From positions 1 to 41,279 of the forward strand of contig CATJNN010000208.1 of the NCBI GenBank assembly GCA_949742185.1: a stretch of DNA of 41,279 bases, given 5' to 3'. The notes under the pieces are model-generated. The model was not told the origin of the DNA. It did not search any database and saw only the letters and a program-made list of their open reading frames with translations. A program made the position numbers and the translations under genes. Shown piece after piece: positions 782-41,279 of this stretch. This stretch comes from an uncultured Clostridia bacterium. Lineage in GTDB: Bacteria; Bacillota; Clostridia; UBA1381. The number at the start of each line of letters is the position of its first letter. Position 1 is the stretch's first letter.

Positions 782-885
782 AACCCTAAATTACATATAA
801 AAACTCCAATTAATACATTAATACATACCAGCAGCAGACATCACACAGCGCTAATACGACGCCTGTTGTCTGTTTAAAACCAAAA

Positions 886-919
886 CAGAGGGGATACGGC
901 TTATGCCGTATCCCCTCTG
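886..919. terminator. Bidirectional intrinsic terminator hairpin shared by the convergent tam and giant genes
   Basis: Perfect 15-bp inverted repeat CAGAGGGGATACGGC (886-900) / GCCGTATCCCCTCTG (905-919) with 4-nt loop TTAT. It is followed by TTGTTCTT on the + strand and, read on the - strand, by TTTTGGTTTTAAA. It lies 105 nt after the tam stop and 6 nt after the giant-gene stop. Confidence 0.8.
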
Positions 920-925
920 TTGTTC

Positions 926-3900
926 TTAGTATGCCTCAAGCACTGCTCTTCTTGTGTTCGACGCGCTGCTGTTGTCCAGCACCATCGCCTTCTGTCCAAG
1001 ATTCATGCATACTATAGATATGTCTCTTGTGTCTATCAGCCCGTCTCCGTTTACGTCGCACAATGCTTTTGTGTAGTATCCTACAGGACCCTGCATTGTC
1101 GCCTGCGTTCCAGCAGAACTGTTCGTAACCGTGTCGTCTTTAACCTTTTCGTCAGAAACATTTTCAGACTCAGTCTCATCGGTGTTATCAGCGCTGCTGT
1201 TATCACCGTCTGTATCGGATTTTTCGCTGTTGTCTGCTTCTGTGTTTTCTGTTTCGGTTTTTTCAGCCGGTTCGTCGTCTTCGTCTGCATCTGTTTCCGG
1301 TTTGTCTGCCGGTTCAGCCAATTCTGCTGTTTCAGCTTCTTCGGCTGTTTCGAGCTCTTCCTCGTTTGCTCCGAAGAACAAAGCTTCTGAGCTGCCGGAA
1401 TCGGAATTGTCGGACGCGGAGCTGTCGGAGCCGCTGTCTGATGATGCAGGAGCGTCTTCTGACGGAGTGTTTGTGTCAGGAGTTTCCGGAGCAGGAGCTT
1501 CTTCCGACGGTTCGTTTTCGTCGGGAGTTTCCGGAGCAGGAGCTTCTTCTGACGGTTTGTTTTCGTCAGATTTGTCGGAGCTGCCGTCTCCGCCTATAAC
1601 CTCTGCGTCTTTGTCTTTCACGTCGTTTCCTGTATTCTGAGACGACATATCCTGCATTATATCCCAGTACATGAGCATTGTGAACTCGTTTATATCAGCC
1701 TGATCGATTATATCCTTGCTGTCGCCGTCGGGAATGAAGTCACCGACAGTGATACGGCATCTGCCGAAGTTGTATTTAGCTTTGGCAAACGTTTTCTGAA
1801 CAACAATATTTTCTATTGTGTAATCAAGATAAGCGTCGCGGCTTATTACAAGCTTGAAGTTGCCGTCTTCAAGCGGAAGGATTTCGAACAAGCCTGTCTG
1901 ACCGACATTGTATACCATGTTGCCCTGGGTGTTTATTTCTGCCGGCGTCCATATAGGCTCGCCGGTTCCGGAGTCAACGCCGGTCTGTTTATACAGACGA
2001 ATCTGAGCCGAGTGACCCTTGTTTGCGGAGCTCGGAGCTATAACGGACGTTTGAACCGTACCTTTCAGATATGTCTGAACTACAGGATTAGCGGTTTCGG
2101 TGTCTCTCTTAAGAACTATTGTGTAAATACCCATCTTGCCGTCATGCTGAACGGTTATTTTCACAGTGAATTCTTTCTTGTCAAGAGCGAGTCCGAAGTT
2201 GTGTTTAGCCGCCGTGCCTGCCGGAGGCGTCTTTGTGGACGCTGTTCCGTCGGTAAGCTGGAAGGTGTAGGTTGCCTCGCTGCCGTCGTCCACTAACGCC
2301 TCGAAGTTAATCTCAGGCAGAAGCGGATCTATGAGAATGCTGTATTCATCCACATCAGGATCGAAGCCGTTTACCGTTCCGTTTTCAGGATCCGCGCCCT
2401 GAACGAGCGTAAGCTCCTTATCGGCATTGTCAAAGGCTTTCAGACCGCCGAGTTTCTTCGTGTTTTCACGCGTTACTTTAAGTATATAAGTAAACGGTGT
2501 TTCGTAATCGTTAGCGCCTGTGCCGCTTATGGTGATGAAGAAGTAGCTTACTTTTTCCTCTGTGCCCAGTGAGTAGTTCTGCGGCAGGTAGTTAACGTTA
2601 TTCGGGGTTGTATTGCCGTTGTAGGTTATAACAACCTCGTAATCGTCGCCGGCTCCCGTGCCTGCCTGAGCTGTCAGCCAGATATCTGTCTGTGTAATAG
2701 GAAGCGTTACTTCCTGAAGCGGTACATTCTTGCGGAAGGTGAAGCCGTCAAACGAAGTCTGATCGGTTTCATTCGGAGCAACAATAAGGTTTTCAAGACG
2801 TGCTGTACCGTCTTTTCTCGGACCGCGTTTTACGGTTATTTCATATGTTCCTGTTTCCTGAGTCGCTATTCTTGTGACTGTTACATATATAACAACCGTT
2901 GCTTCGTCCGATTCAAACATTGACAGCGGGAGCATAATGTCTTTCGCTTCAACGCCGCTTGTCATGCTTCTTTCCAGAAGATCAGCGCCTACTCTGTAGG
3001 TTATTCTGTAGTTAGACGGATCGTCGCCTTCATCAGCGCCCCATGCTGTCGCCGTAAGGCTTACGGTGCGGTCTGTATAATCTATTGTTGTCTCATAACG
3101 GGCCTTTTCGCTGTCCCACGTATTGTTTCCGTCGTCGGTATTTACCGCGGTGAGCTCATACATGCCGTCTCCGTCAGCTGTTTCGTCTGTAATCTCAAGG
3201 TTCTTGAGAGTGCAGCCGAGAACAGGCTCGTCGGAGCGTTCAACCGTAAGAGTATACTCGCCGAATGTCACGTCTGTTTCGTAAACGCGTATTATCACCT
3301 TAAACGTCTTTCCTTCGCCGGAATCCTCGTCTATAAGCGGAAGATTCTTAAAGGTAAGAGTCTTATATGAGTTCATACCGTCTGAAGCCTCGCGGAACAT
3401 GTTCGGATTTCCGTCTCCGTCTGTTCCGTCCGTATCAATCGCCATAGTAACCTTGCCGCCCGGAGTCTGATAGCCGTTTAACACGTCTACCGTGAACTCT
3501 TTTGCAGCCTCGCTTATGCGCACTTTATATTCGCGTTTAGCGGGGTTAAACTTCTCTATCATCGCTGCGTTGCGCGTCTGTATATCGAGCGCAATCGGCT
3601 TATCGGTGTTATAGGCATGAACAATGTATTCGTTAACATCCTCGTAGCCGTTTGCCGAGAAGCGCGTTACGCGGAATATGAAGTCTGACGAATTTGTATC
3701 GGTGTTTATCTGCTGCATGATGTAGCCCGGCAGACCGTCTATAAGCGCGTACGACTTATCGAGATCGTTATACAGTTCCACATACGGCTGCGCGTCGCCC
3801 GACGATACCGCGGCTGCCTTTGCAAACATGTATATAATACCGTTTGTTCCGGAAGCGTCTATCGGTGCGTCGTATTCAAACACCTTGCTGCTGAACGGCT

Positions 3901-12900: not shown

Positions 12901-15900
12901 CAAGGTCAAGATCGCTGACCGCTTTCTTAATCTGAACACCTATATTACCGCTTCCGTAAGATACGCCGTAGTCAAAGTATACCGTTCTTCCGTCGGAGCT
13001 TGTCGAAACAGGCTTAAGCTTGTTAAGACCGTTATATTCAGCCACAGAAATATCAATATCCTTATTTGTATACTTCTGGCGTACATACAGCTTATGAGTC
13101 TCAACCGTACCAATCCATCCGTCGTCTATGCAGTTTCCTGTATTGTTTTCGTCATATTTAGGCTCATAATAATTTTCAATATCGTTCTTCGCGCCAACCT
13201 GGATATAAACGAGCGTGTATGCTCCGTCTTCCTTGTTAAGCGCCGCCTGAACGGCATTGTAGTTTATCTTTCTGCCCGTTTCCGACGAACCCCATGCAGT
13301 CCACTGAATATTCTCGTTGTAATCCTTTCCGTTTGCCTTATACAGCGGATAGTTCTTAGACTGAGCTATATATGCGGCGTAGTCTGCCGGGTTAGTTTCC
13401 TTATCCGGCTTTCTGAGATAACCTATTCTTACATAGTTTTCCTCATTCTTCGCCTGCGCGCTCACTCTTGTATCCTCCGCAGGATTGATTACAACCTCGT
13501 AACGGTTCGGGTTCGGATCCGGCTTGCGCAGTACCTGCGGCTGATTTGCCTCGTCAAGAGTATCGTTAATCTTCACGAACTCAAGCGACGTGTCTATCTT
13601 CATTACGGCAAGCTTGTGCTGCTTGGTGTCTCCGCCCGACGCCTTCATATCTATTGTGAACAGATTTTCGTTGTTTGGCAGAGCCGCGTCTGCAAGCTTA
13701 TCCTTGCCGAACGAGTAGTTTGCATTGCCCTGAATCTTAACCTCAGTATTTGCAGCATCGGCAGTAACTTCAATATCTCCCTTTGTAACCTGTACCGGAA
13801 CCCATGCCTCGTAACGGCCTGTTTTCTCGTTCCATGCAGCCTTAACTGTTACAGGCTGGCTCTCTTCATTAAGTTTGTATGTTACCGTTATACTGCCCGC
13901 GTCAATATTATTATTAATCTTATAGATACGCAGATAGCTTACTCTTATATCAGGCTTATCGGCGCTCTTGGTCTTAATCTGGATAACCGTCATCTCGTCG
14001 CTGTCAAGCAGCAGATTGTATGCGCTCCACTCGTTCGAATTTGCAGAGCCCGGATCCGCAGCGGTATCCTTACCCGCGGAAACCTTGGCAAACGCGTTGT
14101 TTGTCTTAATCTGAACGTCAACCAAATACTGAATTGACATATCCGACGTATCGGAGTTATGGACGGTGTATTCATAGATATCCTCTAAGGTTCCGTCGCC
14201 GTCCACGTCTTCTTGTCTCTTTGCTGTGACAACAAGGTTATCGCTTACTATCTCATTAGCTGTTCCGCTGTTCTCTGTTATAATAATGCTTGCCAGCGTA
14301 TCGTCCGTATTCTTGCGCACAAGCTTTAACGTGTAGTATTCCTCATAGGTGTAATCGCTTGTCGTTATAACCATCGGAATATAAATTTCACGCATAGCCG
14401 TGTCAAGCGCTATTGTCTTGGATACAGCGTTGTTGCCGTTTCCGCTTCCGTTAACGGTGAGGATAGCACCAGCGTTAACAGCTCCTGCCTGAACGTCTAT
14501 CGAATCAAGCTCGTCGGAAATTTCAAGCTCGTATACGTTATTTACGCCCTTTGTAAGCGTCTGATATTCTGTCTGAGCCGCGTCTGTCTTCACTCTCACA
14601 TACTCCATCTCCGTATAGAAATTCGGTACGTAGATAAGCAGACGATAGCTCTTCTTGTCAAGACCGTTGCCCGAGGTTACCGTTATTGTATACTCGGTAA
14701 TCTCATGACCGTTTGCCGCGAGAGCGTCGGTTGTCCACTGACCGTCGACGTCTGAAGCATTATGAGCAATCTCGGCGCCGCTCTTATCCGTAACGATTAT
14801 TGTTCCCGCCTCTGAGTAAATCTCAGCCTTCATGCTTATATTTGACAAATCGTCAAATTTGGACGGGTCAATATATACCGTATACGCCTCGTTCACAATG
14901 CCTATCTCGTTATTTACGATACTGCCGTTGTTATCGTAGTCAACCGCCACGCTTTCAAGCACAGCCTCACGGTTCTCGCGGAGTATAACGAGCGTGTGTA
15001 CTTCGTATGCTCCGTTTGTAGCCGTTACCGTAAACTTGAACTCGCTTCTTTCTTTTGTAAGATTTGTAAATGTTCCCGCATATGTGCCTCTGTAATTAAC
15101 TCCGTTCGGCATTGTTATCAAAGCGTTTAAGTCTCTTGCTTCTATATATATATGAGCCTGAGTCTTCTGATCGCTTATACGTACAACGTGCTCGCAGCCG
15201 TTTGCAGCAAGACCGTTCACTGACATAAGCGATACGCCGCTGCCCGCGGATATGGAGCTTGCAGAGTAATTATCAGGTTTAACATGCGTAGGATACTGGG
15301 TGTTTGTCGCCGGCGCCGTCCATATAACGCCGAACGCCCAGTCCGCATATGTGGTTGTCACGCTGGCAGGACCACGCATCTGGCTGAGCGGAACCTGCGT
15401 AGTTGTAGCGTCCGTTGTGCCGGAGCCGTCAACCGTAAGCTGAACAACCGCATGCGAGCGTTTTATAGCGCCGTCGTTCGTATGTACAAGACCCGCTTTT
15501 TTGCTTGCGTCAGGAGCTGTCAGAGTTACTACAGCGAAGCATTCTTCTATTAATCCGCCAGCAGCGTTAACCGCCGCAATACCAGAAGCTGTCGCGCCGT
15601 TTGACGTAACCTTGGCTCTGCTGTATGAATATCGGATACTGCCTTCATTATAACCCACAAGACCGCCGGCGTATCCGTCGGATACTACGTTAACACTTGT
15701 AGTTGCAGCGTTTACCTTGAGCAGCAAGCCCCTGTTTACGCCTGCAACAGCTCCCACATAAGCGTCTGAGGAGCTTGAAGCAATCTGTGTGCTTGTGTTA
15801 AGCGAAAGCTCTTTAACCTCGCCGCCGTCGCCGATTACAGCGAACAGACCAGCCGCCTCAACCTGAGCGCCGCCTACTGTTACAGTCTTACCTGTTGTAA

Positions 15901-18900
15901 TCTTAAGATTCTTAATTACATGACCCGCGCCGTCGAGCACACCCGTAAACGGCGTGTCCTCCGAACCCAAAGGCTCGAACGTGCCGGACATAACAATATC
16001 ATTCTTAAGCACATAATGACTTGACAGACTGTTCTTGATATTCTGCAGCTCATCCGCGTTTGTAATTTCAAACGGATGCTCGGCCGAACCGTCCGGACCT
16101 GTTTCTATTTCGCCAACGTCCGGATCCGTAGCCTTGCCGTCGCTTATCTGCAGCGTAGGATACTGACCCTGCTTTATAGTCCATACAGTATCAAAGTTCC
16201 ACTCGCTTCCAAACGTGCTTCTGTCAGCCAGCGCTGCTCTTGTAACCGAGCTGCTGCCTATAACCTGCGCTCCGTTTGTATTTGAGCTTACCGTGTTAAG
16301 CGGTAAAATACTATATGAGTTTTCAACCCTGCTGCCGTTTGTATTTGAATAAGCAATACCGCCCGCGGCGTTTGAACCTTCAGGCGTAAGCTTGCCCGCA
16401 TTATATGTGTTCTTCACAACGCCGTTATTATTCTGTGAAACGACGCCGCCTGCTTCTTCAGCCGTTATTTCAGCTTTATTATACGAATCTGAAACAGTTC
16501 CGTAGTTATACGCCGCTATTGACGCAGCGCGCGTCAGTCCCTTTATGCTTCCGGTTACAACCGCACAGCCTGAGATTACGCCATTCGAGAGGTTTTCTCC
16601 CGCAACAGCCGCCGCGGATCTTACAGTACCGGCAACGCTTATGTCCTCAAAGCGGACGTTTCGGATTGTGCCGTTGTTCGATGCGAACAGAGCTCCGTAT
16701 TGATTATTAACGCTGCCTGTTCCCTCTTTTATTGTAAGACCTTTAATTGTGTAGCCGTTGCCGCTGAAGATACCTGTGTATGACTGCGCCGACGCGCCGG
16801 AAGCCGCCGGTCTGCCTATAGGCGTCCAGTCGATTCCCGTCATGTCAATATCGTTCATAAGCGTATAGCTTGCGCTCATATTATTGCGTACATTGTCAAG
16901 GTCCGCCGGTGTTTCAATATGATACGGATTTTCCGGAGAACCGTCCGGTTCTGTCGGAGGCTCCGTCTCGCATCCCGCAGCGGGAGCTATGCTTTCATCC
17001 TCCGTGCCCTTCTCGGCTATAACCTTTGCCACGCCTGTATCGGAACTTTCCTTATTTACATACAACGTATATACAGCCGATTTCTCGCCAATCTCAACTA
17101 CTATGCTGAAGCTGTTAATCTCATTTTCCACAGATACTGAAGCGTTTCTTATAATAGCTCCGTTTGCGGAAGTCTGGCTTTCCGCTATGCTTGACGGATT
17201 ACCATCCTTAAACAGCGATATCTTAGCCGCTGCGGATACTGCAAGTATATCAAGCGTCGCGGTGCTGTCTGCTCTCGGAACAAACGTATAGTATACGCCG
17301 TTCGCGTCAGCTTTTACGGTGCGCTTATCCGTCTCGCTCTCTGAGCGGATAAGTACCGATGAAAGCATCAGCGCCGAATCCTGCTTCGTGATAGTAAGAT
17401 TTATCGTAAACGGAGTATCATACGGATATGTGTAAACCGAAAGCGGTATCACGGTTGTCTGTCCCGTAAGCTTCACGGTGTTTGTAACCTCATACGGAAC
17501 CGTCTCGCCGGATCCAATCTTAACCTTGGCAATCGGACTGTCCGCTTTAAGAGCTACAGACGCCTCCGAAGCATTCGGAGCAACTGTGAACGTGTAGCCG
17601 GTACTGTTTCTGACAGGCGTCTCTCCGTTCACGAGAACGCTTTCAATAACAGACGCTTTATTTACAATATACAGCTTATACGAAGCCTTGTCTGAACCTA
17701 TGGCAATCTCAGCCGTAAGCTCGGATACAGCCTGATCGGCGCTGTACATAATCTGAGCTTTGCCAGTGCCGCTGCCGAGCGCGGAACCGTCGGCATTTTT
17801 AATCGTAACTGACGCGGACGGATTATTAGCCGTAACCGTCAGTACATCTGCCGGAGCGTCGGGAGCGATTCTTAAGATATAAGCCTTGCTGTCAAAGTCG
17901 ACCGCCTTATTTGTCTCTGTCTGACCGAACGATACGTTCTTTACAGACAGGTCGCTGTCGGACTCATATCTTATAGTTACAGTATACGGTCCGCTCTTAG
18001 CCGTCGGAGTATTGACGTTCGCGTATGCCACGTCCGCTGAATAAACGTTAAACGTGAATACTGTCTCTCCGTCAGCCTTAAGCGCAAGATTTTCAAACGT
18101 ATCGCCGGAGCGTTTTCTCACACTGCCGTCTATGCCGTAGCCCGAAAGCTCTATAACGGACATATTTCCGTCCGCCGTAACCGTAAGGTTTACAGGCGAG
18201 AACTTGTTAACTATAATATTGTAGTTTGTCTGAGCCGGAGTGAGCGCAAACAACGATACGTTAACATTAGTCGTTGCTCCCGCAGCCGCCTGCGTTCCGT
18301 TTACATATACGTTTCTTACGTCTACATTTTCAAGGTCTCTGTAAACGTACAGCGTGTATTCCTGATATGCTATACCTGAGGACGATGTTATTCTGAATTT
18401 ATATTCGTTAACAACGCCACCTGCCACGCTGCCCAGCGTTCTTGTGAGCGTGAGCTCGCCGCTTTGCTTCTGTTCTGTTCCCGCGTCGTCGTTCATGGAA
18501 ATATCAGCGAAGCCGTGAGCCGCGCGGATAAGTATTTCAGCCGTATCTACGCCCGAGCCTACCGCAATCTCATAGATTGTCGGGTTGCCCGGTCTCGGAA
18601 TAGCCTCGATGCTGTTTACAATTACATTTCCTATATCCGAGCTTACGCTCTTTCTGTAGATCTCAGCCGTGTACGTCTTCTTAGCGTTCGGCGTAAGGGT
18701 GTCATTTACATACAGCTCTGATACCACAACAAACGTAACAGTCGTCTTTTCATTTGTTGAAAGCGGATAGCCGTTCTTTGTCCATACGCTGGACTGCGGA
18801 ATAACCTGTTTGCCGTCAACAGATATAATCTTAACAGTATCGTTTGCCGTTATGGTTATATCCGAGCTGAATTCTGACGCCGGTATCTGGAACACATAAA

Positions 18901-24900: not shown

Positions 24901-27900
24901 CCTGTATGGACGAAGGCGTTGTAGCCTCGGACTTCTTGTAGATATACAGCTTGTAGCCCTCAGGGTCTCCGCTTTCGGCAAATACTGTTACGCTTACCTC
25001 CTTAACGCGATCCGCTTTCTCAATTACAATGCTCTGAATATCGAAGTTCGCGTCGTGCTTGGACTGAGCGGCATTTTCTGCTCCGTCCTGATGGTCTACG
25101 TTTACTATCTTGCCGTCTACGCGTATCTCCGCCGTTCCGACAGCCTCCGCGCGCACGTAAATTGTACGCGGCTGGTTAGCGTCCTGAGCCGGATCGTCGT
25201 CGTCTATAATTACATACCAATCGTTTGTCTCGCCTATTTGTTTTGCTTCAAGAGCGGTAGCTGCGGGATAAGCGCCGTGGTCTTTTGTATAATCAACCGC
25301 AGACGCGTCGTTATCATAGAAGTCTACAACCTGAATATACTTGAGCGTCGCGTCTGTCGAACGCCACTTAACCGCAAGCTTATACTTGCCGTGGTACTCG
25401 TTCTTGTGCAGACCATTCTCATCCGGCGTACTGCTCTGGTCGCCGTCGTTATCGAAGTAGATATAATACGAATCCAATGCTCTTCCGCTTACCGGAACAT
25501 TCTTAAATTCATAGTATCCAACCATTCTTCCGGAGGTGATTTCCGTCTTTGTTCCCAGCTCGTTTCCGGCTTTATCGCAAAGCTTTATCTTGTCTCCTGT
25601 AGCAGCGCCCGGCTTATCGTTCGATACAAAACTCTTTACATATACCGTAGCTGTTGTTTCATTATCAGCAAGCTCAACATATACAGCGTATACGCCATCA
25701 AGACCTACAAGCTTATAAACCGGATTATCCGGATCCGTGTTGTCTATCTGAATCTCGTCGCTGTCAAGATAGCCTCGGTCATAAGCAGTCTTAGCCTCCT
25801 GATATTCAGCTCTCTTGTTGCTGCCGTCCTTATCCTTAACGGATATAGCCTCGGCTCTTATCGAGCCTATTTCCTTAATCTCAACATTAACCTTAACCTG
25901 AGCTCCCGTGAGCTTATCCGTCACAACAAGAACTACCTTGCCTACCGAAGCCCCGTACAGAACCGCGGCGTCGTATGTCTTGCTTGAGTCGTCAGGATCC
26001 TGAAGCGTCTTGATTGTTACAGACGCTATGCTGTTTTCAGCAACAACGCCGCCCGCGGTATTCATACCCGGATTATTTTCAATAACCTCAGGCTCCGAGC
26101 CGTCTTCCGGCCATGTCTCAAACGACCATGTGTACAATGACGGATCTGTTGAAGCGGCGTCGTCAAATACATTAAATCTTTCAAACGATACCTCAAGAGT
26201 CTCCTCTTTGCCCTCCATTGTCGTTATAGACGGAGGCGAAACCTTAAAGCTTCTGTCGGATACCATTACAAAGTAGTTTTTATCCGCCTCAGCGTCACTC
26301 GTCCACTTGCTGCCGTTATCGTTATTTCCGAGCTGACCGTACATATTGCTTCCGGCAGCCCATACGAACCCGTCGTTCATAATCATATATGAAGACGAAC
26401 CGCCCGCGCTTACAGCTATAGCCGAGCCCATATCTTTCCATATAAGCGTGCTGCCCGACTCATCGTCGTCGGCAAACTTTTTGTCTATGTGCTCAATCTT
26501 TGTAGCCTTGCTTGTGTGGCTTGCGGCAGTGTACAGACCAAGACGTCCGTTTGAGGAAGCTCCCCATACATAAACGTTGCCGTCTGAATCAATCGCCATA
26601 TTATGAGCCGCGCCCACAGACACGTCAACGATATGCGGAGCCGTTCCGTCGGCAAACTGCAGCAGCGAAGCGGCTGTCGGGTCGGAAATAGTTCCTCCCA
26701 TTGTGCCGTTTCCGAGCTGACCGTAATCGTTAGTACCCCATGCAATCACTTTGCCGTTGTTAAGAAGCGCGATTACATGCGATTTTCCGTCATATGTCTT
26801 TATAACCTGACCGTCATAGCCGCCTACGCTTATCTGTACGGGAGTCGGGAAGTTCTTATCAGCAGAAGCGCTTATCTGATGATTATTGTTATCGCCCCAT
26901 CCCCATACTGTTCCGTCGTAGCGAACCGCTTTTGTGCTGTCGCCGCCGGCGCCTATGCTTATACCTATTACCTTATTTATACCCTGAACCTTTACAGGCG
27001 ATAATCTGCTTGTCTGCGAAGCCATGCCTATACCAAGCTGACCTGCGCCGTTAAAGCCCGACGTATAGAGATCGCCCGTCTTTGTCATAAACGTTGTGTG
27101 TCTTGTTCCGAGCGATACTCTTGATACCGCCGTCAAATCTGTAACCTGAACAGGCGAATACTGATTCTTTGTGTTGCCCAGACCAAGCTGTCCGCTGCTG
27201 TTCGCTCCCCATACATATACCTTTCCGTCTGAGGATACAGCCGCAGAGTGGTTTTCTCCAGCATATACGGACGTTATGTTCTTACCGTCAAGCAGGGTTA
27301 TCTGAACCGGCTTATCAACGAAGTCTGAAACCGCGCTGCCTACGCCGAGCTGTCCGTAGTTATTGCGTCCCCAAGCCCATACTGTGCCGTCTGCCTTGAG
27401 AACTATAACATGGCTCTGACCCGCCGCAATCATCGGCGCGTTCTCGTAATCGTCAGATATAACCGTTACCGTGCATATCGAGGTTATGCCGCCCTTTGTA
27501 ACAACAATCTGCGTTATACCCTCGCTCTCGCCTGTGATCGTACCCGTTCCGTCAACGCTTGCGATAGCCGCGTTTATAGAACTGAATGAAATAGAGTCGC
27601 TGTTTGTGTAGTTCTGATACAAGTTGAACTTATCTCCGGAATATGTAAACAGAGTATGCGTAGCGCCTTTCTTAACTGTAACGTCATATTCACGGATAAG
27701 CTGCTGTCTTTCGCCGATTTTAACCGGAACTGTGCTGTTTGTATCGTTAGGATCTATGCTTGCGTTGCCCTGTGAATAATCGCCGAAGCCGTATACAAAG
27801 CCGTCGCTGTCAAATACCACAGTGTAACCGGCGCCTGCCGACACTCCTGCCGCCTTTACGCCGTTCTTATTAATATTTGTATTCGGAACCGCCTGAGGCG

Positions 27901-30900
27901 CGTCGTCAGTTGTGCCTATTCCAAGCTGACCCGCGCTGTTTGCTCCGGTTACATAAAGCTTGCCGTCCTTGTCAATGAACATTGTGTAGCCATCGCCGGC
28001 AGAAAGTTCAGATACGGACGGAACCGCTCTGTCTGCAGGCATCTGCGCAGGCACTGACGTCTGCGTAAGCTCCGGTACTCCAAACTGACCGTGGTCGTTT
28101 GTGCCCGCAACATATATATTCTTGCTGTAGGTAAGCAGCATTGTATGGCTGCTTCCCGCGCCGACTTCAACTATCGGCTCTGTTACGCTCACTTCTTTAG
28201 GCGTATACTCGTTCGCCGCGCTGTTTGCCGCGCCGAGCTGTCCGCCCGCATTGCTTCCTGCAGCATACGCTTTTCCGTTTGCAAGCAGGTATACGCTGTG
28301 ACTGTCGCCCGCGAATACGCGCGAAACATTGCCTATTCCCACTCTTGCAGGTTTATTATATTTATTCTGCTGGTCTTCAGCGCCGAGCTGTCCGCGGTCG
28401 TTAAGACCCCAAGCCCACGCTTCGCCGTTTTTGTCAACAGCAAGGCTTGTGCCGTTGCCCGCAGCTATTGCGGTAACATTCTTCATATCCGCGTCGGATA
28501 CTTTTACAAAGACAAGGCTTTCCGCGCCGGCGCTCGGCTGACCGAGCTGTCCGTGGTTATTCTGTCCCACAGCCCAAACGCTTCCGTCCTCCGCAAGCGC
28601 GAGCGCATGACTGAATCCTGCCGCGACGTCTGTAAATTTAACCTTAACGCCGCTTTCGGAAGGAGTTACCTCAACAGGCTCGTCGCTGTGAACCCTGTCG
28701 CCTGTGCCGAGCTCGCCGTTATTGTTAACGCCCCATGCCCAAAGCGTGCCGTCAAACTTAACAGCAAGCGCATGCGTGCCGTTTGTAACGACCTTAGGAT
28801 CAAACACACCGTTCATTCCCGCTATAACAGGAACAACAACAACTCTTAAATATCCGCTCTTGAGCGTATACTTATCCTCGCTTACGCGGATATAAGCAGT
28901 TCCCGCGGTTTTAGCAGTTATAATTCCGCGGTCTGAGTCACTGTTTCCGACCGTTGCCGCCGGCTCGTTATTTGACTGATATTTAAACTCGTTTGTGTTT
29001 GTCGTATTGTTATATACGTTAAACGGTATAAATCCGCCCTGTATTTCAGCTGTCTGACCCTCTGCAAGGTAGATTGTGCCGTAAACGGGCTCCCAGACTC
29101 CGTTTACTTTTCTGGATATAACCATCTCGTTGCCGCCGACAACAACGGACGTATATCTGTCCATAAGTGTGCCGTCGCCGAGCTGTCCGTTATTATTGCG
29201 TCCAGACATCCAGACGTTACCGTTATCCTGAATGCTCATGAACGAATCATAACCGTTGCCTATAGATGTATTTGTGGTTACGCCTGTAGCTCTCGCCGGC
29301 TCAGCCTTATATGCTGCGGATGAATCGCCTATGCTAAGCTGACCATAGTTATTGCGTCCCCATGTGTATACGTTGCCGGCGCTGTCCATAGCCGAAGACG
29401 TATATCGTCCCGCGCCGATGTCTTTAATTCTGCTGAGATAGTCGCCGTCAACATCCTCCTGAACGCCCTTAACAACGCGTACCGGAGCCGCCGCGGAAGC
29501 CGGCTGATTGCTGCCTGTGCCAAGCTGACCATAGTTATTCTGTCCCACAGCCCAAACGTTTCCGTTAGCGTCGAGAGCAAGAACATGGTCTTCGCCCGCC
29601 GCTATCTTAATAATTGCAATCTCTCTGCCGTTCTCATCTTTATAACCTATAACCTTTTCAGGCGCGCCTGTTATATTATCCGCTATCTTCCATACAGTAC
29701 CGTCGTTTCTGAGCATGTACTGTCCGCTGATATCGGCCGCGTTTGTAAGCGAGCCAATCCGGGTTACAACGGAGCTGTCTCCAAGCTTTTCGCCGCCCGC
29801 GTACACATCGCCGTTTTCAGTTATTACAAATACCGTGTTATGCCATGAAGCGACCTTAGACGCTTTTATCGCAGTACCGAACGTTATTCCGCCGGCCATT
29901 TTAACTTCATAGGTTCCGGCAATTCCGTCGGTAATAAGACCTGTGACAAGCTGACCATGGTCGTTAGCTCCCCATGAGTACACTTTGCCGCCTTCAGTAA
30001 CAGCGTAGGTCGCTCTCTCGCCTGCCGCTATGTATACGACGGACGGCTGATTATCCGCCGGCTCGTTCGTATCAAATATTACCTGGCCTATACTGCCGCT
30101 GTCAGCGCGTCCAAGCTGCTTGGCAGCGTCGCTGCCCCATGTCCACACAGTGCCGTCAGACTTAAGCGCCGCTGTATGGTTCTCTCCCATAACAACCATC
30201 GGATAAGCCTTTCCGCCTCTTACAACCACAGTAATGTAGCCCTCGGCTCCCGAATCTGTCTTGGTGAGCTTAAGCACCGCCGTACCCGGCTGAACGCCGT
30301 AAATTGCTGTCCCGTTCGACGAAGATACCTTGAGGAATCTCTCGTTCATAGATGTGAGAGTATAGTCGTTTGTCGCCGTACCGTTGAGAAGAAGGTTAAG
30401 TCCTTCCGACTCGTTTACCGTAAGGGTATTGCTTGCTTTAACATCAAGAGCGGAAGCCTCGCTGCTGTGCAGAGGTATATCAATATATACGGTCTGCGGA
30501 ACTATTGAAAGCTGTTTTCTTCCTGCCATAACAGGTACATACGAATCAGACGTATCCTCGTTTCCGAGCTGACCGTCTTCATTTTTACCGAAGCTCCATA
30601 CAAATCCGTCATTCTTAATGCTTACAGTATGGCTCGCGCCCGCTTCAACCGCTATTATATTTTCATAGCCGCTGTGCGAAAGCTTTTTCGGTTTGTTTAT
30701 TTCTGTGTTTATAAGCTCGCTTCCCGCTTTGCCGAACGCCGCGCTTCCCCATGTATACACGTTTCCGTTTGTATCCACGGCAACACTGTAACGGTCGCCC
30801 GCCGAAATGAGCTTAATATTATTAAATACGTCGCCGTCTTCAGTCTGGGTTATCTGAGCGGGGTCTGTTCTTCCCGCTTTATCAAAGTTACCAAGCTGAC

Positions 30901-33900
30901 CGCGCGTGTTATCGCCCCATGACCATACAACACCGTTCATATCCAGAGCAAGCGTATGGTTTCCGCCCGCCTGATTATATGTGTCCGCGTCGTACTCTCC
31001 GCTCGACGACAGGCGCGCAATCTGCGGCAGACCCGTTTTCTTCTCGGCAATCGGATTTGCGTTTGTAATTACAGACCAGACTGTAGCGTCAGCCTTAAGA
31101 GCGTAGCCGCCTGAAATATCGACTACCTTGCCTAAAAGACCGAGTTTAACCGGAACGCTTCCATAGTCTTTGCCGAACGCATACGCGTTTCCTTCAGCGT
31201 CGATAACAAAGCTGTTGTTATCGGAGGCGGTTATGCGCGCCGCCGCAAAGTCTGTATTAATCTTAACAGGCGAAAGCTGCGAAGGAGCCGCCGCGCTTGT
31301 GAGCTGACCGTTTCTGTTATCGCCCCATACCCACACGTCGCCCGCGGAATCTATTGCCAGCGCATACTCGTCGCTTGCCGCAATGGCTGTTATATATTTA
31401 GAGCTGTCGTCAAAGCTGAAGCTTATCTTCTTAGGCGAAATATCGCGCTTGCCGTTTCCGTCGCCAAGCTGACCGCGTCCGTTAGCGCCCCATGTATAAA
31501 CCGTGCCCGCTTTATCAAGAGCAACCGTGAAGTTGCTTCCGGAAGCAATCTGAATCTTCGCCTTGTTTGAAGCGTCGTTTTTGATTACGGTGATATAGCT
31601 CATAGCCGTAACCGTGCTGCCCGAACCGTCGTTAGCGGTGACAACAATTACCGTGTCGCCCTCCGCGTTAGCCGTAATAAGACCGCTGCTGTTTACGGAA
31701 GCAACGCCCGTATCAAGAGACGTCCATGTAAGAGCTACAGTATTGTCGTCTTCCTTTATAACGTTAAGAGCTCTCTTAAACTGTGCGGATACCTGCTCTG
31801 TTGTGCCCGCAGTCATTGTTCTGTGATATTTATCAAGTTTTATATAGTTTTCTCCGGTCTTAACAGGAACTTCCTTAAGCGTCACCGACAAATCACCGAG
31901 CTGACCGCTGCTGTTCGCGCCCCAGCTCCATACCTGACCGTCCTCGGTCGCGCCGCCGGAATTGCCCGCGCCCGCGCCGACTGTAAGCCAGCCCTTGCCA
32001 GCCTGAGGAGACGCTATCTCGGCAGCCGTTGAAATCACGCCGCCGCCCGAAGCTATATTTGTGAGCTGATTAGTAGCGTTGCTGCCCCAGCCGTAGAGCT
32101 TTCCATCGTTTGACAGAGCCATAAGCTGAGTTGTTATACGCTTGCCGCTGTCTTCAGCCACAGATTTTCCTATAACTACCGATTTAATGTTTGCAAGCGG
32201 AAGATTCTTATTTGTACCCGAATCGCGCTGCGGTCCCAATACTACAACCGGTTCACGCGCCAGAGTAACGTCCGGAGCCATGTAGTCCAGATTTGCAATC
32301 TGTCTGCTTGTATTATCGCCCCATACGTACACATTGCCGTCTTTTGTTACAGCCGCCGCGTTATACGCGCCCGCAGCTACAGACGATATGTTTTCTATTG
32401 AGCTTACGGATACTATTGAAGCGCTGTATTCATCCTCCGAGCCGCTGCCCAGCTGGCCGCGCGTGTTGTCTCCCACGCTCCAGAGGCTGCCGTCGGCGAG
32501 CATAATAAGCGTCGTATTCGCGCCTGCCGCCGCAGTTACAGCGTTATTTACATAGCCGTTTCCGCCCACGCCGGACATTACCGCCGGCATGAAGTTTTGA
32601 CTGTTGTTCGGAGCGCCGTGTCCGAGCTGGCCGCGCGTATTGCTTCCCCATGTATATATGTTTCCGTTATTGTCTATTGCAGCGCTGTGCATTGCGCCCG
32701 CCGCAATATCCGCTATTATCTCGTTATTCGCCGCGTCCGCAAGCGTTGCAATCTTAGACGGCATATTTATAACGCCGCTCTGAACCGCGCTTGCGCCGAG
32801 CTGACCGTAACGGTTATTACCCCACGCGTATACCTCGCCGTATTCCGTGAGCGCGAGAACAAACTGATCGCCTACGGCTATCTTTGTTATTCTTTCAACC
32901 TGATTGCCGGCCGCGTCTTTTTCAACCGCCTGCGGAGTAACGGACATACCGCCTGTTGTGCCCATGCCAAGCTGACCTGAGGAGTTGTCTCCCCATGTCC
33001 AAACTTTACCGTCCTGCGTAAGCGCAGCTCCGAAGCCGTTTCCGTAGAGAACCTGCGGATTTGTGAAGCCGTTTGTTACAATAACACGGCATGCCACGCT
33101 TCTGCCCGTTGTTAAATCTTTTAATATGATATATGTCTCGCCGATACCTGTAGGCGTAACGTTAGCTACTGTCTGATCGCCTGAGTTAACCAGAGCGACA
33201 GTCGCAACGTTATCGTTCATGCTTGACCAGTCAAGCTGAGCGTTTGTGCCTGCATTTGTGAACAGTGAGAATGTATTTGAGCCCACTGTCGCCGTAATCT
33301 TTGTATCTGTATTAAGCGATGTGTCGTCGAGCCTTAACCGCATTGTCTTTTTATCGATAACCACAGGCGCGCTGCCGGCAATTACCGGATATGTGCTGCT
33401 CTGCGTTGTGCCATTACCGAACTGACCGCCGTTATTATTACCCCACGCGAACACGCGTCCCTGAGTATTTGCCGCGAACGTGTGCAGAGCGTATGGATTT
33501 GCGCCGTTTGTGTACGCGCTCACGAGCATCATTTCATCTATAGGATTGTTGGATGTGTTGGAGCGCATAACTTTAACCGGACTGTCTTTACGCGCAGTCG
33601 AGCCGTCGCCGAGGTTACCGTTCGGGTTAAAGCCCCAAGCCCAGATTGTTCCGTCCTGAGCAAGAGCTTCTGTATAGCGGAAGCCTGCCGTAACTGAAGC
33701 TATACCTGAAAGCGGTTTTGATGTATCCGGATTTACAGCCGCTGTCGGATAAACATTGGCGTTATTGCCGGTGGTCGTGCCGCTGCCGAACGCTCCGTTG
33801 CCGTTATAGCCTACAGACATTACTCTGTCAATGAACATATCCGTAGTAGACGGATCAACAGAAGATGTTCCGAGACTGTAATCATATTCGTATACATTGA

Positions 33901-36900
33901 CCGTAGCCCGGTAATCATCTATAGAAACATGAGTTATACCGCGCAGAACTTCACCGGCCGACTTATACATCAGCTTAACTGTACCCTTATTTCCGGTAGA
34001 GCCGTCGCCTACTATACCGTAGCCGTTATAGCCCGCCGTCATAACCGTCGCGTCCTTATTAAGAACCGCAACGTTATACATGCCTACAGCCGCGTCAAAC
34101 GCGTCGTTTACGCCGCTCATCTTAACAGGCGTGAGCTTGTTTGCTCTGTCGCTGCCCGTGCTGAGCTGAGCGTAGCCGTTATAGCCCCAGCCGTAAGCCG
34201 TGCCGCTTTCCGTTATAGCCACTGCCGTATTCGGACCCGCTGCTATTCTTACTATTCTGCCTGTCTTGCCTGTTACGTCTCCGAGTTCGCCGCTTCCGTC
34301 AGGACCTTTAACCTTTACAGGCTCATGATTTTCTGTAACGTTTGCTATACCTATACCAAGCTCGCCGCGGCTGTTAAGACCCCACGCGTATACAGTGCCG
34401 TCTTTTGACAGCGCGTACGCCGTCGCCTGACCTGCGGCTATATCCACGATATCCTTCATAACCGCACCCGAAGCTGTAATCTGAACCGGCTCCGTGGCGT
34501 TCGGAGTCATAGCCGGATCTTCGCCGAGCTGACCGTAGCTGTTATCTCCCCAAGCCCATACTGTGCCGTCCGCTTTAAGAGCGAGATTAAACATCGCGCC
34601 CGAAGCTATTTTCGGGAATACTGAACCCGAAACGTTTATTCCGTTGGCCCCCGCCGAATATTCAGCAGGAAGAACCTCAACGTCGCAAAGCGCGTAAAGA
34701 CCTGTCACCGCGTCATAGAATATAAGTCTTGCCGTGCCGACGCCCTTAAACTGAACTCTGTGCGTAATATGGTCGACAACCTCTACAACCTTCGGATTTG
34801 TGGATTCCATACGAACCATAACGTCGCCCTGACCGCTGCTGCTGCCGAACACGTTAAATCCGCTTGTTGCACGAACGTTAAATGTTGTGGAATTATAAGC
34901 GCTTACATATGTGGTTATCTTTCTCGGAACACCCGCAAGCTGGCTTATACCTGCCGTTGCCGGATATGGCTGGTCGTCGAACATACCGTTTCCGATTTGT
35001 CCGCTGCCGCCCAGACCCCATACATACACGTCGCCGCGTCGGTCTATAGATGCCGAATGATTACCTGTGCCGGACGTGCTTACGGTAATCATATCCTTAG
35101 CTTCGTTGGCTGAATCAAGCATAACGTTTGTTACGCTGCCTGAAGCGTTTGATATGTATCCGTTTCCAAGCTCGCCCTTGCTGTTGCGTCCCGCGCCGAG
35201 TATTTCGCCGAACAGCGGGTCGCCTGTGCCGAAGTGACTGCTGCTTACAAGCGCCAGAGCGCTGTATCCTGCGGATACTTCAACTATATCCTTATCCGAA
35301 AGAGCGTCTATTGCAACCGGAAGCGTTCCCGCGCTTGTCGGAGCCGCGCCCATCTGACCGTTTGCATTATTACCCCAGCCGTATACTCTGTTATTTTCCG
35401 TAACAGCGTACGCAGACTTATAGCCCGCCGCTATAGCTACGGCTGTTTTGCTGCCGAGGTCAACCTCGGAAATTGTTTGAACGCTGCTTGTGCCGTGGCT
35501 GTTTAACGCGTTTTCGCCGCGCGCAAGCACTCTGCCGTCTATGGTGAGCATATAGTTCGTCGAGCAGTCGCCTGCCGCTATATCCTTAACGCCTGCTATA
35601 TCCATATATACAGGCTCGTATATTATTTTTGCGGCAGACTGTGTAAGCTGAGCCTTATGATTGCTTCCCCAGCCGTATACCGCGCCGTTTGACGAAAGCG
35701 CCATAACATTCGGGAACTCGCCGCCCGCAGCCGCAATATCTTTTATCTTTATATTGTTATTTGTAAAGTATCCTACTTTTGTCGGAGTGTCTGTTCTTGC
35801 ACCGAACGCCGCGCCGAGACCAAGCTGACCGTTATTGTTGGCGCCCCATGTATACACTTCGTTATCCACGGTTACGGCCGCGACAAAGTTTGCGCCCGCG
35901 CTTATTCTTACAACAGACGGCAGCCCATCAACCTTATGCGGAGCCGTTTCCATGCTGCCTGTATAGCCCATGCCGAGCTGACCGTAGCTGTTATCGCCCC
36001 ATGTCCACACCGTTCCGTCCGCTTTAAGAACAGCTGTGAAATTGCTTCCCGTTTCAACCTGCGGGAAGGTTACAAACGTAATCGGATTATTATTCTCGTC
36101 TTTTCTGTTTGTATCATCCGGAATCACATACACCTTAACGTAAACAACGTCTTTTTCCGTTCCGTCTGTTAATGTTATTTCAAGATATGTCTGACCCACT
36201 TCGTCGCTGCTTGCGGTTATATTTGTTCCGTTTATAACAGCAAGCCCTTTATTCCATATATTATATGAAGGCTGCGCTGAAGCCGCTGTATCACGGATAA
36301 TGTTAAACGCAGGGCGAACCTTATCCAGACCAAGAGAAGCGAGACTGACGGTCTTGCCCTGACGCAGCAGTATGCTGTCCGGAACCGAACCGATGCTCAT
36401 CTTACCCGCTTTATCAGCGTAGTTAATGCTGCTGCCGGCATCCTTTATACCAAGCTGATACGCCTCGTTAGAGCCTGCGGCCCAGACAAAACCGTTTTTA
36501 TCCGCAAACAGCGTATGCGAGCCGCCTACTCCGTACTGAGCCGACGAAACTGACGCTGAAGCTGTCATGAGACCGCCGCGGCCGGAAGCCATAGCAATAA
36601 TATCTCTTTCAAACGCCATGCCGTTTTTATCAACCGGCGACGCTGTAATATCCGAAGCTGTAGAGTTTGTGTTTGTCTTATTAGCGCGCTGACCGAATTC
36701 ACCTGCGCCGGAGATAAGCGGTTTACCCGTATTATCTATAGAATATACCGACGAGCCGCCGCCGATTGCCACTGTATTTGTTCTGAACGGCATAATCTCA
36801 GGCTTTGTGAGTGTATTTCCGCTTGAAAGCGCATACGACACATTCGAGCCCCACGCATATGTTGTGCCTGTGATTGAGCTGTCGGGCGTCTGATCAGCGT

Positions 36901-39900
36901 CGTCCGTAAGAGCGTATGCAACCGCCATACCGTTCTGGTTGCCGGCTCCTATCGACATAACGCGCTGCGGAAGCGGAACCTGAACAGGCGTGCCCGTATT
37001 ATCCGCCGGACGCGCGTAGCCGTTTCCGTATTCATAACTTAAATTCTTTCCGACAGCCCACACTCCTCCGCTTATGCGAAGCGCAAACGCCGTAGCGCCG
37101 TGACCCGCCGTGATATCCGAAGCGTCCTTAATAACGGTACCCACCGGTGTGAGTATCGCTGTCTGAGCGCTTGCTTCTACCTGTTTATATGAGTTATTAC
37201 CCCAAGCGTATACCGTGCCTGTTTTATCGAGCGCCCATGCGAAGCCTTCAGCGTTTGAAAGTCCGCCCGCCGCGATTGCAACGATATCCTCAAGGAATGT
37301 CTTTGTTGTATCAATTATATTCTGCGCGCCTTTGAGCACTTTGGCAGGCACGCTTAAATTATCTGTGTTGTCCTGACCGAGCTGACCCTGGTCGCCGCGG
37401 CCCCATGCCCATACCTTGCCGTCTTTATCGAGAGCAAGAGCAAAGTCGCCGTTTGCGGCTACTTTAATTATATTAGAAAGTCCCTGAACCTGAACAGGAT
37501 ATTCCGACGCGCCGCCGAATTCTCCGTTACCGAGCTGACCATAATCGTTAGCGCCCCACGCCCATACTGTACCGTCCGCTTTAAGAGCCAGACTGAAGCG
37601 TCTGCCTGCCGCAAGCTGCGGGAACGCAACGCTGCCGCCGGCGCCTTTGCCTACCGCCGCGTCGTTCGGGCGCACTTCAACTTTAACGACAGATGTGAGT
37701 CTGCTGTCGCCCTGCCAGTTTACAATAAGATATGTCGTGCCTACGCCTGTCGCTCTGATTCTTCCCGTTGTCTTATCCAGAACTTCAACAACGTTATTCT
37801 GCATATCAAATGTGCGCCAGAATACAGGCACTGTCTGTGACGAAGACGATGAGTTAAATACGTTGAACGCGTCCACCGTAGGAGCGTCAAGCGTTATCGT
37901 CTCTCCGTCATACATTGAATACAGGTACTTCGGCAGGCTGAGATAAGACTCGCCGACGCGCACAGGCGTATACCTGTCGTCCTTTTCGCCGTTGCCGAGC
38001 TTAGGTCCTCTGCCGTAGCCTGTCGCCCAAACAGAGCCGCCGTCCTTAATAAAGAACGAGGTTTTTCCCTGAATTGCAGGCGTATTATAGCCCTGCGTTG
38101 AAATCTGTATAACGTCTGTTATAGGAGCCGTCTTATCGCTGCCTGAATCGCCCGCCAGCACGCTGCCGTATGTTCCTGCAAGAACTCCTGTATCTCCCCG
38201 GCCAAGCTCTGGCGAGTTCGCCGTAGCGCCCACAGATATTACAGAACCGTCCGCTTTAAGAGCCATGATCGAGCTGTCCGCCGACGTTACTACTGTCGGA
38301 ACAGCGTTTCCGTCCGCGTCCGCGGTATCAAAATTAGTATCCCGCGTCGGAACCGGAACGGTTGTATTCACAACATAACCCCATGAATAAACTTTTCCTT
38401 CGGTTGTTATAGCCTGGATATTGCCCCAGCCCTGAACCGCGTTTACTATAAATTCGTCTTCAATGCTCATTAGAACAGGCGCTGAAAGCGTAGTCACCGA
38501 GCTTCCGCCCTCATTATATATACTTCCGCCCCATACCATAAGCTTTCCGTCTGCGCGTATACCGCTCTGACCGAGACCGCCCATAGTAAGACCCTTAAGG
38601 TTTCCAAGCGCGGCAATTTTTTCCGTCAGATTTACAGGCGCTGTAATCTGCGGCGACTTATCGGACGGATCAAGCTTGCCCTGACGCGCCGCAGTGTTAT
38701 TACTGCCCGCGGCGGTAGCCACAAGGTTTGAGCCGAACGCGTAAACGTCGCTGTTCTGCGTAAGAACAATCGAGCTTGACTGCGGATTGCGGTACGCCGT
38801 GTAGTCGTTTGTATTCATAGGCGAGGAGCTTGCGTCCACGTCTACCGCCTTCTCTATTCCCGCAACAACACGCGCAAGATTTATTATATTAGTATTGCCC
38901 GCCGAGCCGTTTCCAAGCTCGCCGTCAAAGCCTATGCCCCATGTCCAGACCGTTCCGTCTGCACGAAGCGCGATAAAGTGGTTTTGTCCCGCCGCAATCT
39001 TAACGAAATCGTTCATCGGCATCTGGGCTGTTCCGTATATTCCATCGCTGTTTTCATCTCCGTTTTCAAGATGTTTAGCCTGAACAGGAGAAGCCTCGGG
39101 AGCCATACCCGTTGTGTCTGTTGTTCCCTGCGAGAGCTGACCATAGCTGTTATCGCCCCATGTCCATACAGTACCGTCCGCCTTCAGAGCCGCCCCGCTA
39201 TATTTGCCCGCGACAACCTGAGGATAAGCTATAAATCCTGATGAAGCCGGCACAACCTGAATCTTAACGCTTCCTGTGTTGCCTTTTTCATCTTTAATAA
39301 TTATATATGTAACGCCCGGATTCTTCGCAGTTATAACGCCCGTATTTGAAACGGACGCAACGTCGTCGTTAAACGACGTCCATGTATACTGATCCGGAGT
39401 ATATGTGGATTCTTTCCACACGTTAAAGCCCGCGACAGCCATAAGATGCTGTCTGCTTATATCCAGCGTGTCGCCCGACTGAAGCGCGGTCATTATATGC
39501 TTTCCGTCCTCGCGCACTATTGTGTCGTCGAAGATTTTAACAGTCTCATATATGCTTCCGCCGCGCACAAGAAGCGCGTCAACCACTTCGATATGGCGTC
39601 CGCCGTATTCTGAAACAACCTTAACAGGCGAATCCATATCCGCCGACGCCTCGTTGCCGAGCTTATACGTCTGTCCGTAGCCCGCGGAATACACCGAACC
39701 GTCGTAGCTTATAAGGTGCGACGTCACAACCTGCGGAATGTTGCCTGAATCATTTCCGCGCGACATTGTGCTGTACATTATATTCTTAATATATCCGTTA
39801 TCGTCCTTATTGCCGTCTTCTCCCGCTTCGCCCGCGACAACGTTTCCTTTTCTGACGGTACTGTCGCCGCCGAACGCCCCCGCGATAATGCTGTTGCCGG

Positions 39901-41279: not shown

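Follow-up and report, generated by a model that had tools for sequence, protein, structure and literature searches.

A single gene occupies positions 926 to 41,278 of the minus strand in a 41,279-nucleotide stretch of DNA (the window; contig CATJNN010000208.1 of GenBank assembly GCA_949742185.1, positions 1 to 41,279 of the forward strand) from an uncultured Clostridia bacterium of the GTDB lineage Bacteria; Bacillota; Clostridia; UBA1381. The gene is real, and its product, here called the giant, carries tandem RCC1-like propellers, a long stalk of cadherin-like domains and a C-terminal dockerin-type module. Judged by sequence, the giant is a distant member of an uncharacterised family of very large proteins that has gained a pair of GLUG domains and an acidic insert and is without the M23 peptidase found in most of its relatives. 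All of its domain types are typical of surface proteins, and it is very probably an extracellular protein with a structural or adhesive role. A more complete model, in which it forms a wall-tethered, non-enzymatic adhesive fibril with its C-terminus at the wall and its propellers distal, has in our judgement an even chance of being correct.

The reading frame and its agreement between assemblies

In the window, one stop-free run of 13,450 codons occupies minus-strand frame 1 (929-41278), closed by a TAA at 926-928; the single coding frame of more than 40.3 kb claimed in the preliminary description of this DNA is thus borne out. The other two minus frames contain 818 and 1,040 stops, and chance can be excluded as the source of this open reading frame (ORF) because open runs in those frames average only about 13-17 codons. 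The gene extends roughly 3.1 kb past the window edge. On a JGI contig (Ga0434952_110381, sample 3300038382, 54,319 bp), which we reached through the exact sequence of the neighbouring methyltransferase gene, it is called at 14,487 residues, and therefore about 1,037 N-terminal residues lie outside the window. Residue numbers given here count from the window edge, and the part encoded in the window makes up 93% of the protein. The computed mass is 1.436 MDa for this part and about 1.55 MDa for the whole 14,487 residues, close to the 1.4-1.5 MDa estimated beforehand, with a pI of about 4.6. Directly 3' of the stop codon, between the convergent giant and methyltransferase genes, lies a bidirectional intrinsic terminator hairpin (884..921) with a 17-bp stem, 10 G-C pairs and a T-rich tail.

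The preliminary description had proposed a check for collapse. The protein repeats of the giant are only 20-60% identical to one another, and the longest DNA self-match in its gene is 77 nt at 87% identity, within the low-complexity linker near the 3' end. Because the protein repeats have diverged and there is no long DNA self-match, repeat-driven collapse or chimerism is unlikely, and a collapsed tandem repeat was rejected. A second assembly agrees with the window: the 14.6-kb contig NODE_3264 of ENA ERZ14864017 has the same order of helix-turn-helix (HTH) regulator, methyltransferase and giant, is 99.6% identical over 9,150 ungapped nt, and keeps the giant frame open to the contig end, a distance of 3,284 codons. 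Third codon positions hold 29 of the 38 substitutions between the two, and the codon differences comprise 27 synonymous and 7 non-synonymous changes, which on these sequences is a pattern of purifying selection. All indels between them fall in the acidic linker and all are in frame.

A third fragment (L062; ERZ14864628 NODE_14494, 3,250 bp, 3.5x coverage) is 99% identical to the window and speaks against an intact gene, since a 40-nt deletion (window about 24379-24418) causes a frameshift near residues 5,622-5,636, and an early stop is also present. The deletion, which has short microhomology at its junction, may stem from faulty assembly or may mark a genuine allele that is disrupted or phase-variable. 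The stop lies inside a cluster of six mismatches in the first 30 nt of the contig and looks like a contig-end error, and away from the contig ends the fragment differs from the window by nine synonymous versus four non-synonymous changes. We conclude that the giant ORF is a real gene and not an artefact, because the second assembly is 99.6% identical, the changes are mostly synonymous and long internal repeats are absent. An assembly artefact, chimera or decaying pseudogene is very improbable in the face of 13,450 open codons, internal repeats too diverged to collapse, the mostly synonymous, third-position changes over 9.15 kb of agreement, and full-length relatives that recur in many samples.

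Two compositional features of the gene were also seen. In one antisense (plus-strand) frame there are just 192 stops over 41 kb, with long ORFs such as 12668-14137 (489 residues) and 24893-25987 (364 residues); these are most simply a by-product of the codon and amino-acid bias of the giant gene and not real genes. The G+C content changes in steps along the gene, from 51-53% in the propeller part (28-40 kb) to 46-50% in the stalk, and is 40.6% in the first 2 kb of the window, which contain the linker, the intergenic region and the methyltransferase gene.

Domain order and the family of relatives

Roughly the first third of the window-encoded protein consists of ten tandem modules (26309..41176, minus strand; residues 35-4990), each made of a Big_2-like immunoglobulin-type (Ig) domain and an RCC1-like, probably seven-bladed beta-propeller, as identified with Pfam and our own hidden Markov models (HMMs). 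The modules are 460-580 residues long and share 25-45% identity. Over residues 1-4,990, Pfam scored 1,883 bits for WD40_RLD, 1,155 for RCC1 and 1,079 for RCC1_2; the best stretch for WD40_RLD (PF25390, cut-off 150 bits) spans profile positions 35-347 of 363, and profile matches to the RCC1-type families (PF25390, PF00415 and PF13540) are above cut-off over a full propeller. A search of the PDB with one module matched the whole propeller of RPGR, UVR8 and RCC1 (E=8e-36; 320 residues of RPGR). Big_2 scored 50.5 bits in the giant, and our HMMs place the starts of its units at residues 35, 617, 1137, 1657 (weak), 2140, 2669, 3170, 3626, 4085 and 4550. The ten Big_2 and propeller pairs described earlier are present, with Big_2-like units at nine module starts and, weakly, at the tenth. 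Our blade HMM detected 57 blades in the ten modules, seven in four of them and three to six in the other six; the undetected blades have probably diverged. Pfam recovered all of the RCC1, RCC1_2, Big_2, cadherin-like and Glug families that had been read from motifs.

A junction of about 600 residues (region A; 24524..26308, minus strand; residues 4991-5585) follows the propellers. Pfam is silent on it at E<=10, and only weak Ig- and cadherin-like HMM signals were obtained, from which it is probable that the region includes a terminal Big_2 domain. The stalk proper consists of two arrays of cadherin-like domains. Array 1 (17021..24523, minus strand; residues 5586-8086) has 21 strong copies and 1 weak copy, and array 2 (2117..15193, minus strand; residues 8696-13054) has 28 strong and about 5 weak copies, as found with PF12733 and our own iterated HMM; gaps in array 2 probably hold diverged copies. 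In all, our HMM detected 49 strong and about 10 weak copies with a period of about 110 residues. PF12733 (cut-off 24.2 bits) scored 206 bits over 11 stretches in residues 9401-13450 and 42.5 bits in residues 4701-9600. The preliminary description had counted 61 copies (25 plus 36); the family assignment holds, and the number becomes about 50-60. Between the arrays lie two paralogous GLUG-type domains of about 285 residues each (15284..16939, minus strand; residues 8114-8665), also as previously described. The second passes the Pfam cut-off when scanned alone (PF07581, 22.6 bits against 20.5), while the first has no Pfam match and is recognised as a paralogue of the second by 28% identity (E=6e-24). 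Both are presumably beta-helical; the pair had no match in a sequence search of PDB structures. Nowhere in the window-encoded part of the giant did Pfam or NCBIfam detect a catalytic domain, in keeping with the absence of one noted beforehand.

Relatives were sought by an exhaustive HMMER search with residues 4,550-5,749, and the best 150 representatives were annotated with our own HMMs. Exactly eight of these share the domain order of the giant (P0141, P0159, P0166, P0178, P0179, P0189, P0190 and P0234). They are 4.7-7.2 thousand residues long, recur in many samples and lie on contigs of up to 426 kb; one is NCBI MCI8654530.1, annotated as 'hypothetical protein [Clostridia bacterium]'. Their layout consists of a basic-then-hydrophobic N-terminus, 7-12 pairs of Big_2 and RCC1, 4-12 detected cadherin-like domains, and a conserved C-terminal module that combines a CarboxypepD_reg-like sandwich with a dockerin of two segments and, in most members, an M23 peptidase. 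The giant itself has this order, including the CarboxypepD_reg-like sandwich and the two-segment dockerin after the stalk, at 25-38% identity to the relatives. For region A, the only relative among the top 150 representatives was a fragment of the giant gene itself, 99% identical, and a search of one genome per GTDB species returned no close orthologue of the giant, only generic RCC1 proteins at 26-44% identity.

Peptidase_M23 was detected by Pfam in four of the five relatives tested (80-91 bits), and a scan for catalytic motifs found HxxxD and HxH intact in seven of the eight (P0141, P0159, P0178, P0179, P0189, P0190 and P0234), where the peptidase forms the C-terminal 110 or so residues directly after the dockerin. 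The eighth, P0166, lacks M23, and like the giant it stops just behind the dockerin; Pfam found no M23 in the window-encoded part of the giant. The catalytic motifs in these relatives point to peptidoglycan hydrolysis as a function of the family that would have been lost in the giant. Conversely, no GLUG domains occur in the relatives, and the giant is two to three times longer, with about 50-60 stalk domains compared with the 4-12 detected in the relatives, or roughly five-fold more. At the locus of one relative (L060, 6273-9626; GCA_948777935.1, CAQDYY010000002.1), a gene for a 1,117-residue RCC1/Big_2 protein lies directly upstream of one for a 4,686-residue product without an N-terminal export segment; a frameshift or a stop may have divided a single gene here.

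The C-terminal module of the giant begins with the CarboxypepD_reg-like beta-sandwich (1769..2068, minus strand; residues 13071-13170), which precedes the dockerin as it does in the relatives, where it has a weak Pfam CarboxypepD_reg match. An HMM built from the relatives' C-terminal module matches the giant at residues 13,037-13,198 (25 bits) and again at 13,403-13,431. A canonical type I dockerin consists of a tandem pair of loop-helix segments whose calcium ligands occupy loop positions 1, 3, 5, 9 and 12. In the giant, a degenerate segment 1 (1658..1753, minus strand; residues 13176-13207, ITVGDFIPDGDSKDIIDQADINEF...) is separated from segment 2 (986..1090, minus strand; residues 13397-13431, YYTKALCDVNGDGLIDTRDISIVCMNLGQKA) by an acidic, Ser/Pro-rich, low-complexity linker of about 190 residues (1091..1657, minus strand; residues 13208-13396), and the protein ends at residue 13450, 19 residues after segment 2. 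Segment 2 (DVNGDGLIDTRD) has a canonical D-x-N-x-D-G-x-x-D-x-x-D calcium loop followed by a helix, and it matches Pfam Dockerin_1 (PF00404) at 19.4 bits (E=1.2e-3; profile positions 33-53 of 57).

Several observations on this module weigh against calling it a dockerin. The score lies below the Pfam cut-off of 22.9 bits with only segment 2 matching; splicing out the linker brought no gain (18.1 bits). Segment 1 alone is not recognised by Pfam, and its calcium-ligand positions (DFIPDGDSKDII…) are non-canonical. AlphaFold2 models of the C-terminus, with a predicted local distance difference test (pLDDT) score of 37.6 without an alignment and 43.2 with nine sequences, were too poor for a fold search. 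Nevertheless, both segments fall in register with the relatives' segments in a MAFFT alignment, in the relatives, too, the first segment is degenerate and the second canonical, and two of the five relatives tested pass the Dockerin_1 cut-off over the full length (29.2 and 34.5 bits). Because of this segment-for-segment alignment with relatives, two of which pass Pfam, the C-terminus of the giant is accepted, by homology, as a dockerin-type module. The dockerin named in the preliminary description thus survives in that form, but it fails the Pfam threshold and is split by the insert. One relative, P0178, also has an insert, of about 60 residues, between its dockerin segments.

The linker itself is variable. 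The only DNA tandem repeats of the window lie in it, at 1305-1569 (residues about 13,237-13,325), where 18- and 45-bp periods, the latter at 1446-1569, encode the PSEEAPAPETPDENE unit. The second assembly (L048) has about five such units compared with two to three in the window and a further Ser-rich stretch; the frame is kept throughout, and the flanks are identical. The copy number of this unit differs between the two strains, but neither dockerin segment does.

Proposed surface location, tether and orientation

Because full-length relatives start with a basic and then a hydrophobic segment ending in a small residue, the giant would be exported by Sec. The hydrophobic segments of the relatives are 17-20 residues long and end in …VVA, …VFA, …AVA or …GLA. 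The window-encoded 13,450 residues contain no hydrophobic stretch of 15 residues or more and no LPXTG motif, and an LPXTG/sortase-anchored protein was rejected. An RTX-type, type I-secreted adhesin was likewise rejected, as there is no GGxGxD-type repeat in the window-encoded protein and its C-terminus is a dockerin-type module. A phage origin was also rejected: PHROGs matches were limited to the generic HTH regulator and the methyltransferase, and the 254-kb contig that carries one relative has pyrimidine-biosynthesis and penicillin-binding-protein genes around it.

In the model to which we give even chances, the C-terminal dockerin would hold the exported giant on the surface of the producing cell through a cohesin-type module of a neighbouring secreted protein, and one candidate partner carries three SLH wall-binding repeats. 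At about 4 nm per beta-sandwich, 55-60 sandwiches give a length of about 0.25 µm, and the 50-60 beta-sandwiches and two beta-helices of the giant would thus form a stalk of this size; the dozen Big_2 and propeller modules would add about 0.1 µm, for a whole fibril of about 0.35 µm. The dozen or so RCC1 propellers at the far end would make up a head for multivalent ligand binding on the surfaces of hosts, particles or microbes, with the acidic linker serving as a flexible, repulsive spacer at the wall.

Candidate partners come from the neighbouring locus. The gene convergent with the giant encodes a class I S-adenosylmethionine (SAM)-dependent methyltransferase (17-781, plus strand; Methyltransf_31, 70.6 bits), and just upstream of it is an XRE-type HTH_3 regulator (L001, 342-677); this pair is linked in at least eight independent assemblies. 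Contigs from other samples overlap the end of the JGI contig at 98.5-99.9% identity and extend the map past the regulator, into a cluster of secreted proteins with signal peptides. These include a protein of at least 647 residues (1,315 in one JGI assembly) with Flg_new_2, cadherin-like and dockerin-like domains; a 683-residue protein with a dockerin-like end, for which a sequence search of PDB structures gave no match; a 1,460-residue protein with five Listeria-Bacteroides repeats, a cadherin-like domain and a dockerin-like end; a 1,286-residue protein (L057, 7410-11270; Logan SRR31212430_5047) with YDG and Big_2 domains and three C-terminal SLH repeats (97 bits); and a protein of at least 733 residues with He_PIG and MBG domains. 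The dockerin-like ends align with the full Pfam profile at only 15-18 bits. A dockerin-ended gene of '292 residues' beside the regulator (L051, 5713-6591) corresponds to the C-terminal part of the protein of at least 647 residues (L058, 2-1945; P0130, 1,315 residues) and is probably a truncated or mis-started gene model.

The 683-, 1,460- and 1,286-residue proteins, and one protein from a related metagenome-assembled genome, have in common an N-terminal domain of about 230 residues directly after the signal peptide. Its motifs 'VG.RF.VGV…' and 'GLF…FDPNYL' resemble cohesin strands by eye. An N-terminal cohesin with C-terminal SLH repeats would be the layout of an anchoring scaffoldin, and the 1,286-residue SLH protein is a candidate for that role, offered as a lead only. 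Glycoside hydrolase and carbohydrate-binding modules were detected neither in the giant nor among the products of the seven neighbouring genes examined; because the locus as seen has no such enzymes, any cohesin-dockerin system there would not be a polysaccharide-degrading one.

A number of observations weigh against the tethered fibril. The 230-residue domain had no cohesin match in Pfam, NCBIfam or a PDB profile search, and hhalign against a CipA cohesin sequence aligned the expected motif only weakly (E=0.013, probability 3.4%). The dockerin of the giant is of a different subtype from those of its neighbours, with which pairwise BLAST gave no significant match. At the locus of one relative, no cohesin-like domain lies within 10 kb. 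The M23 peptidase follows the dockerin in relatives, and the dockerin is therefore not simply a terminal tether in them. The roughly 1,037 N-terminal residues beyond the window may hold a signal peptide, a membrane anchor or an enzyme domain. Finally, we know of no ligand for any bacterial extracellular RCC1 propeller.

Part of this evidence fits a different view, in which the dockerin-like module is a structural calcium-binding element with no cohesin partner, and the giant is either released or held non-specifically, for example by the acidic linker binding cations at the wall, as a matrix or aggregation fibre. It would then resemble many non-cellulosomal 'dockerin-like' proteins. The sub-threshold Pfam score, the degenerate first segment and the insert that splits the module are all consistent with this view, as are the failure of Pfam and of a PDB profile search to find a recognisable cohesin among the candidate domains, and the relative's locus that lacks a candidate partner. 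However, both segments are conserved between strains while the linker between them varies freely, the module keeps the same position across relatives only 25-38% identical, and the locus is rich in dockerin-ended secreted proteins, one of them with SLH repeats. We consider a purely structural module unlikely.

The fibril could also have the opposite polarity. An uncleaved N-terminal membrane anchor would then keep the propellers near the cell while the stalk pushed the C-terminal module outward. In the relatives, this arrangement would present an M23 peptidoglycan hydrolase to neighbouring cells for contact-dependent attack on their walls, and in the M23-less giant a distal dockerin would recruit a cohesin-bearing effector or a partner cell in trans. 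In favour of this polarity, seven of the eight relatives retain both M23 motifs, HxxxD and HxH, immediately behind the dockerin, their N-terminal hydrophobic segments are long (17-20 residues), and a preprint on giant genes connects such proteins with the degradation of cell walls and adhesion between cells (bioRxiv 10.1101/2023.11.21.568195). On the other hand, all of these segments end in small residues, as signal-peptidase sites do, and the giant itself has no M23. Moreover, M23 could equally bind the producer's own wall, and the neighbouring SLH protein fits a wall-proximal dockerin partner. Reversed polarity is an unlikely reading of the giant, and the tethered fibril with distal propellers remains the one we prefer.

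Relation to known systems

Very large RCC1-type genes have been reported from Oscillospiraceae in human, mouse and rabbit gut metagenomes by West-Roberts et al. (bioRxiv 10.1101/2023.11.21.568195). Their products exceed 30,000 residues, consist of a single repeating domain over the full length, lack a transmembrane anchor and are predicted to be extracellular; the same preprint describes other Clostridia proteins of 10,000-30,000 residues that carry dockerin repeats. The giant resembles the Oscillospiraceae RCC1-type proteins in being a very large protein of Clostridia with RCC1 propellers and a predicted extracellular location. It differs from them, on a comparison with their description only, in that propellers fill about its first third and are followed by a cadherin-like stalk, GLUG domains and one terminal dockerin. 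The preliminary description had put forward the combination of domains as novel; that claim goes too far, as eight uncharacterised proteins share the architecture and RCC1-type giants were already in the 2023 preprint. The combination of RCC1, cadherin-like, dockerin and M23 domains was not found described in the open-access papers and preprints that we searched. New in the giant are its composite build, a stalk expanded five-fold, the two GLUG domains, and the split dockerin together with the absence of M23.

Two classes of known adhesins invite comparison. In ruminococcal cellulosomes, the non-enzymatic, dockerin-bearing adhesin CttA is bound to the wall-anchored cohesin ScaE, and tethering of this type of adhesin through a wall-anchored cohesin provides shear-resistant adhesion. 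Force spectroscopy of the related human-gut complex is the subject of PMC7456326. By analogy, the C-terminal dockerin of the giant would hold a non-catalytic binding protein on a wall-anchored cohesin in the same manner. However, CttA-type adhesins have fewer than 1,000 residues and bind cellulose through defined modules, and their partners are experimentally proven. The giant, by contrast, lacks carbohydrate-binding and glycoside hydrolase modules, its dockerin is split and degenerate, and its partner is only putative.

The second class comprises megadalton repeat adhesins such as MpIBP of Marinomonas, SiiE of Salmonella, LapA of Pseudomonas and Ebh of Staphylococcus, in which arrays of Ig-like extender domains present ligand-binding domains. 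The giant shares with them a long array of beta-sandwich extenders. RTX adhesins rely on type I secretion and on retention by an N-terminal module, and contain RTX repeats; none of these features was detected in the giant. Ebh is anchored in the membrane at its C-terminus, unlike the giant, whose window-encoded part has neither an LPXTG motif nor a hydrophobic stretch. Giant1-5 of Apilactobacillus kunkeei (PMC12863079) are counted here with this class. Neither RCC1 propellers nor a dockerin are known from MpIBP, SiiE, LapA, Ebh or Giant1-5. The giant therefore belongs neither to the giant extender adhesins nor to the dockerin-tethered ruminococcal adhesins.

A broader scenario, which we put forward with little confidence, is that a cohesin-dockerin network unrelated to polysaccharide breakdown may fasten a fibril of 1.5 MDa and twelve propellers to the wall or S-layer of a Clostridium of the gut type, and that the family may be a contact-dependent cell-wall weapon which, in this lineage, would have lost its M23 warhead and had its stalk expanded five-fold to become a long-range adhesin. 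Whatever its mechanism, the giant ranks with the largest of those bacterial proteins for which more than one assembly and a mainly synonymous pattern of substitution support the reading frame. It also shows that some RCC1-propeller giants of Clostridia are composite in architecture and carry a defined C-terminal module. Size alone is no longer surprising in such proteins; it is the C-terminal module, the SLH/dockerin gene cluster and the M23-bearing relatives that make this family experimentally approachable, since they provide a dockerin partner to be sought among the proteins of the locus, a peptidoglycan hydrolase that can be assayed, and propellers suited to glycan or protein arrays. If the tether is not real, the giant would be one more very large uncharacterised surface protein. 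If it is, cohesin-dockerin assembly would extend from enzyme complexes to the display of megadalton adhesins.

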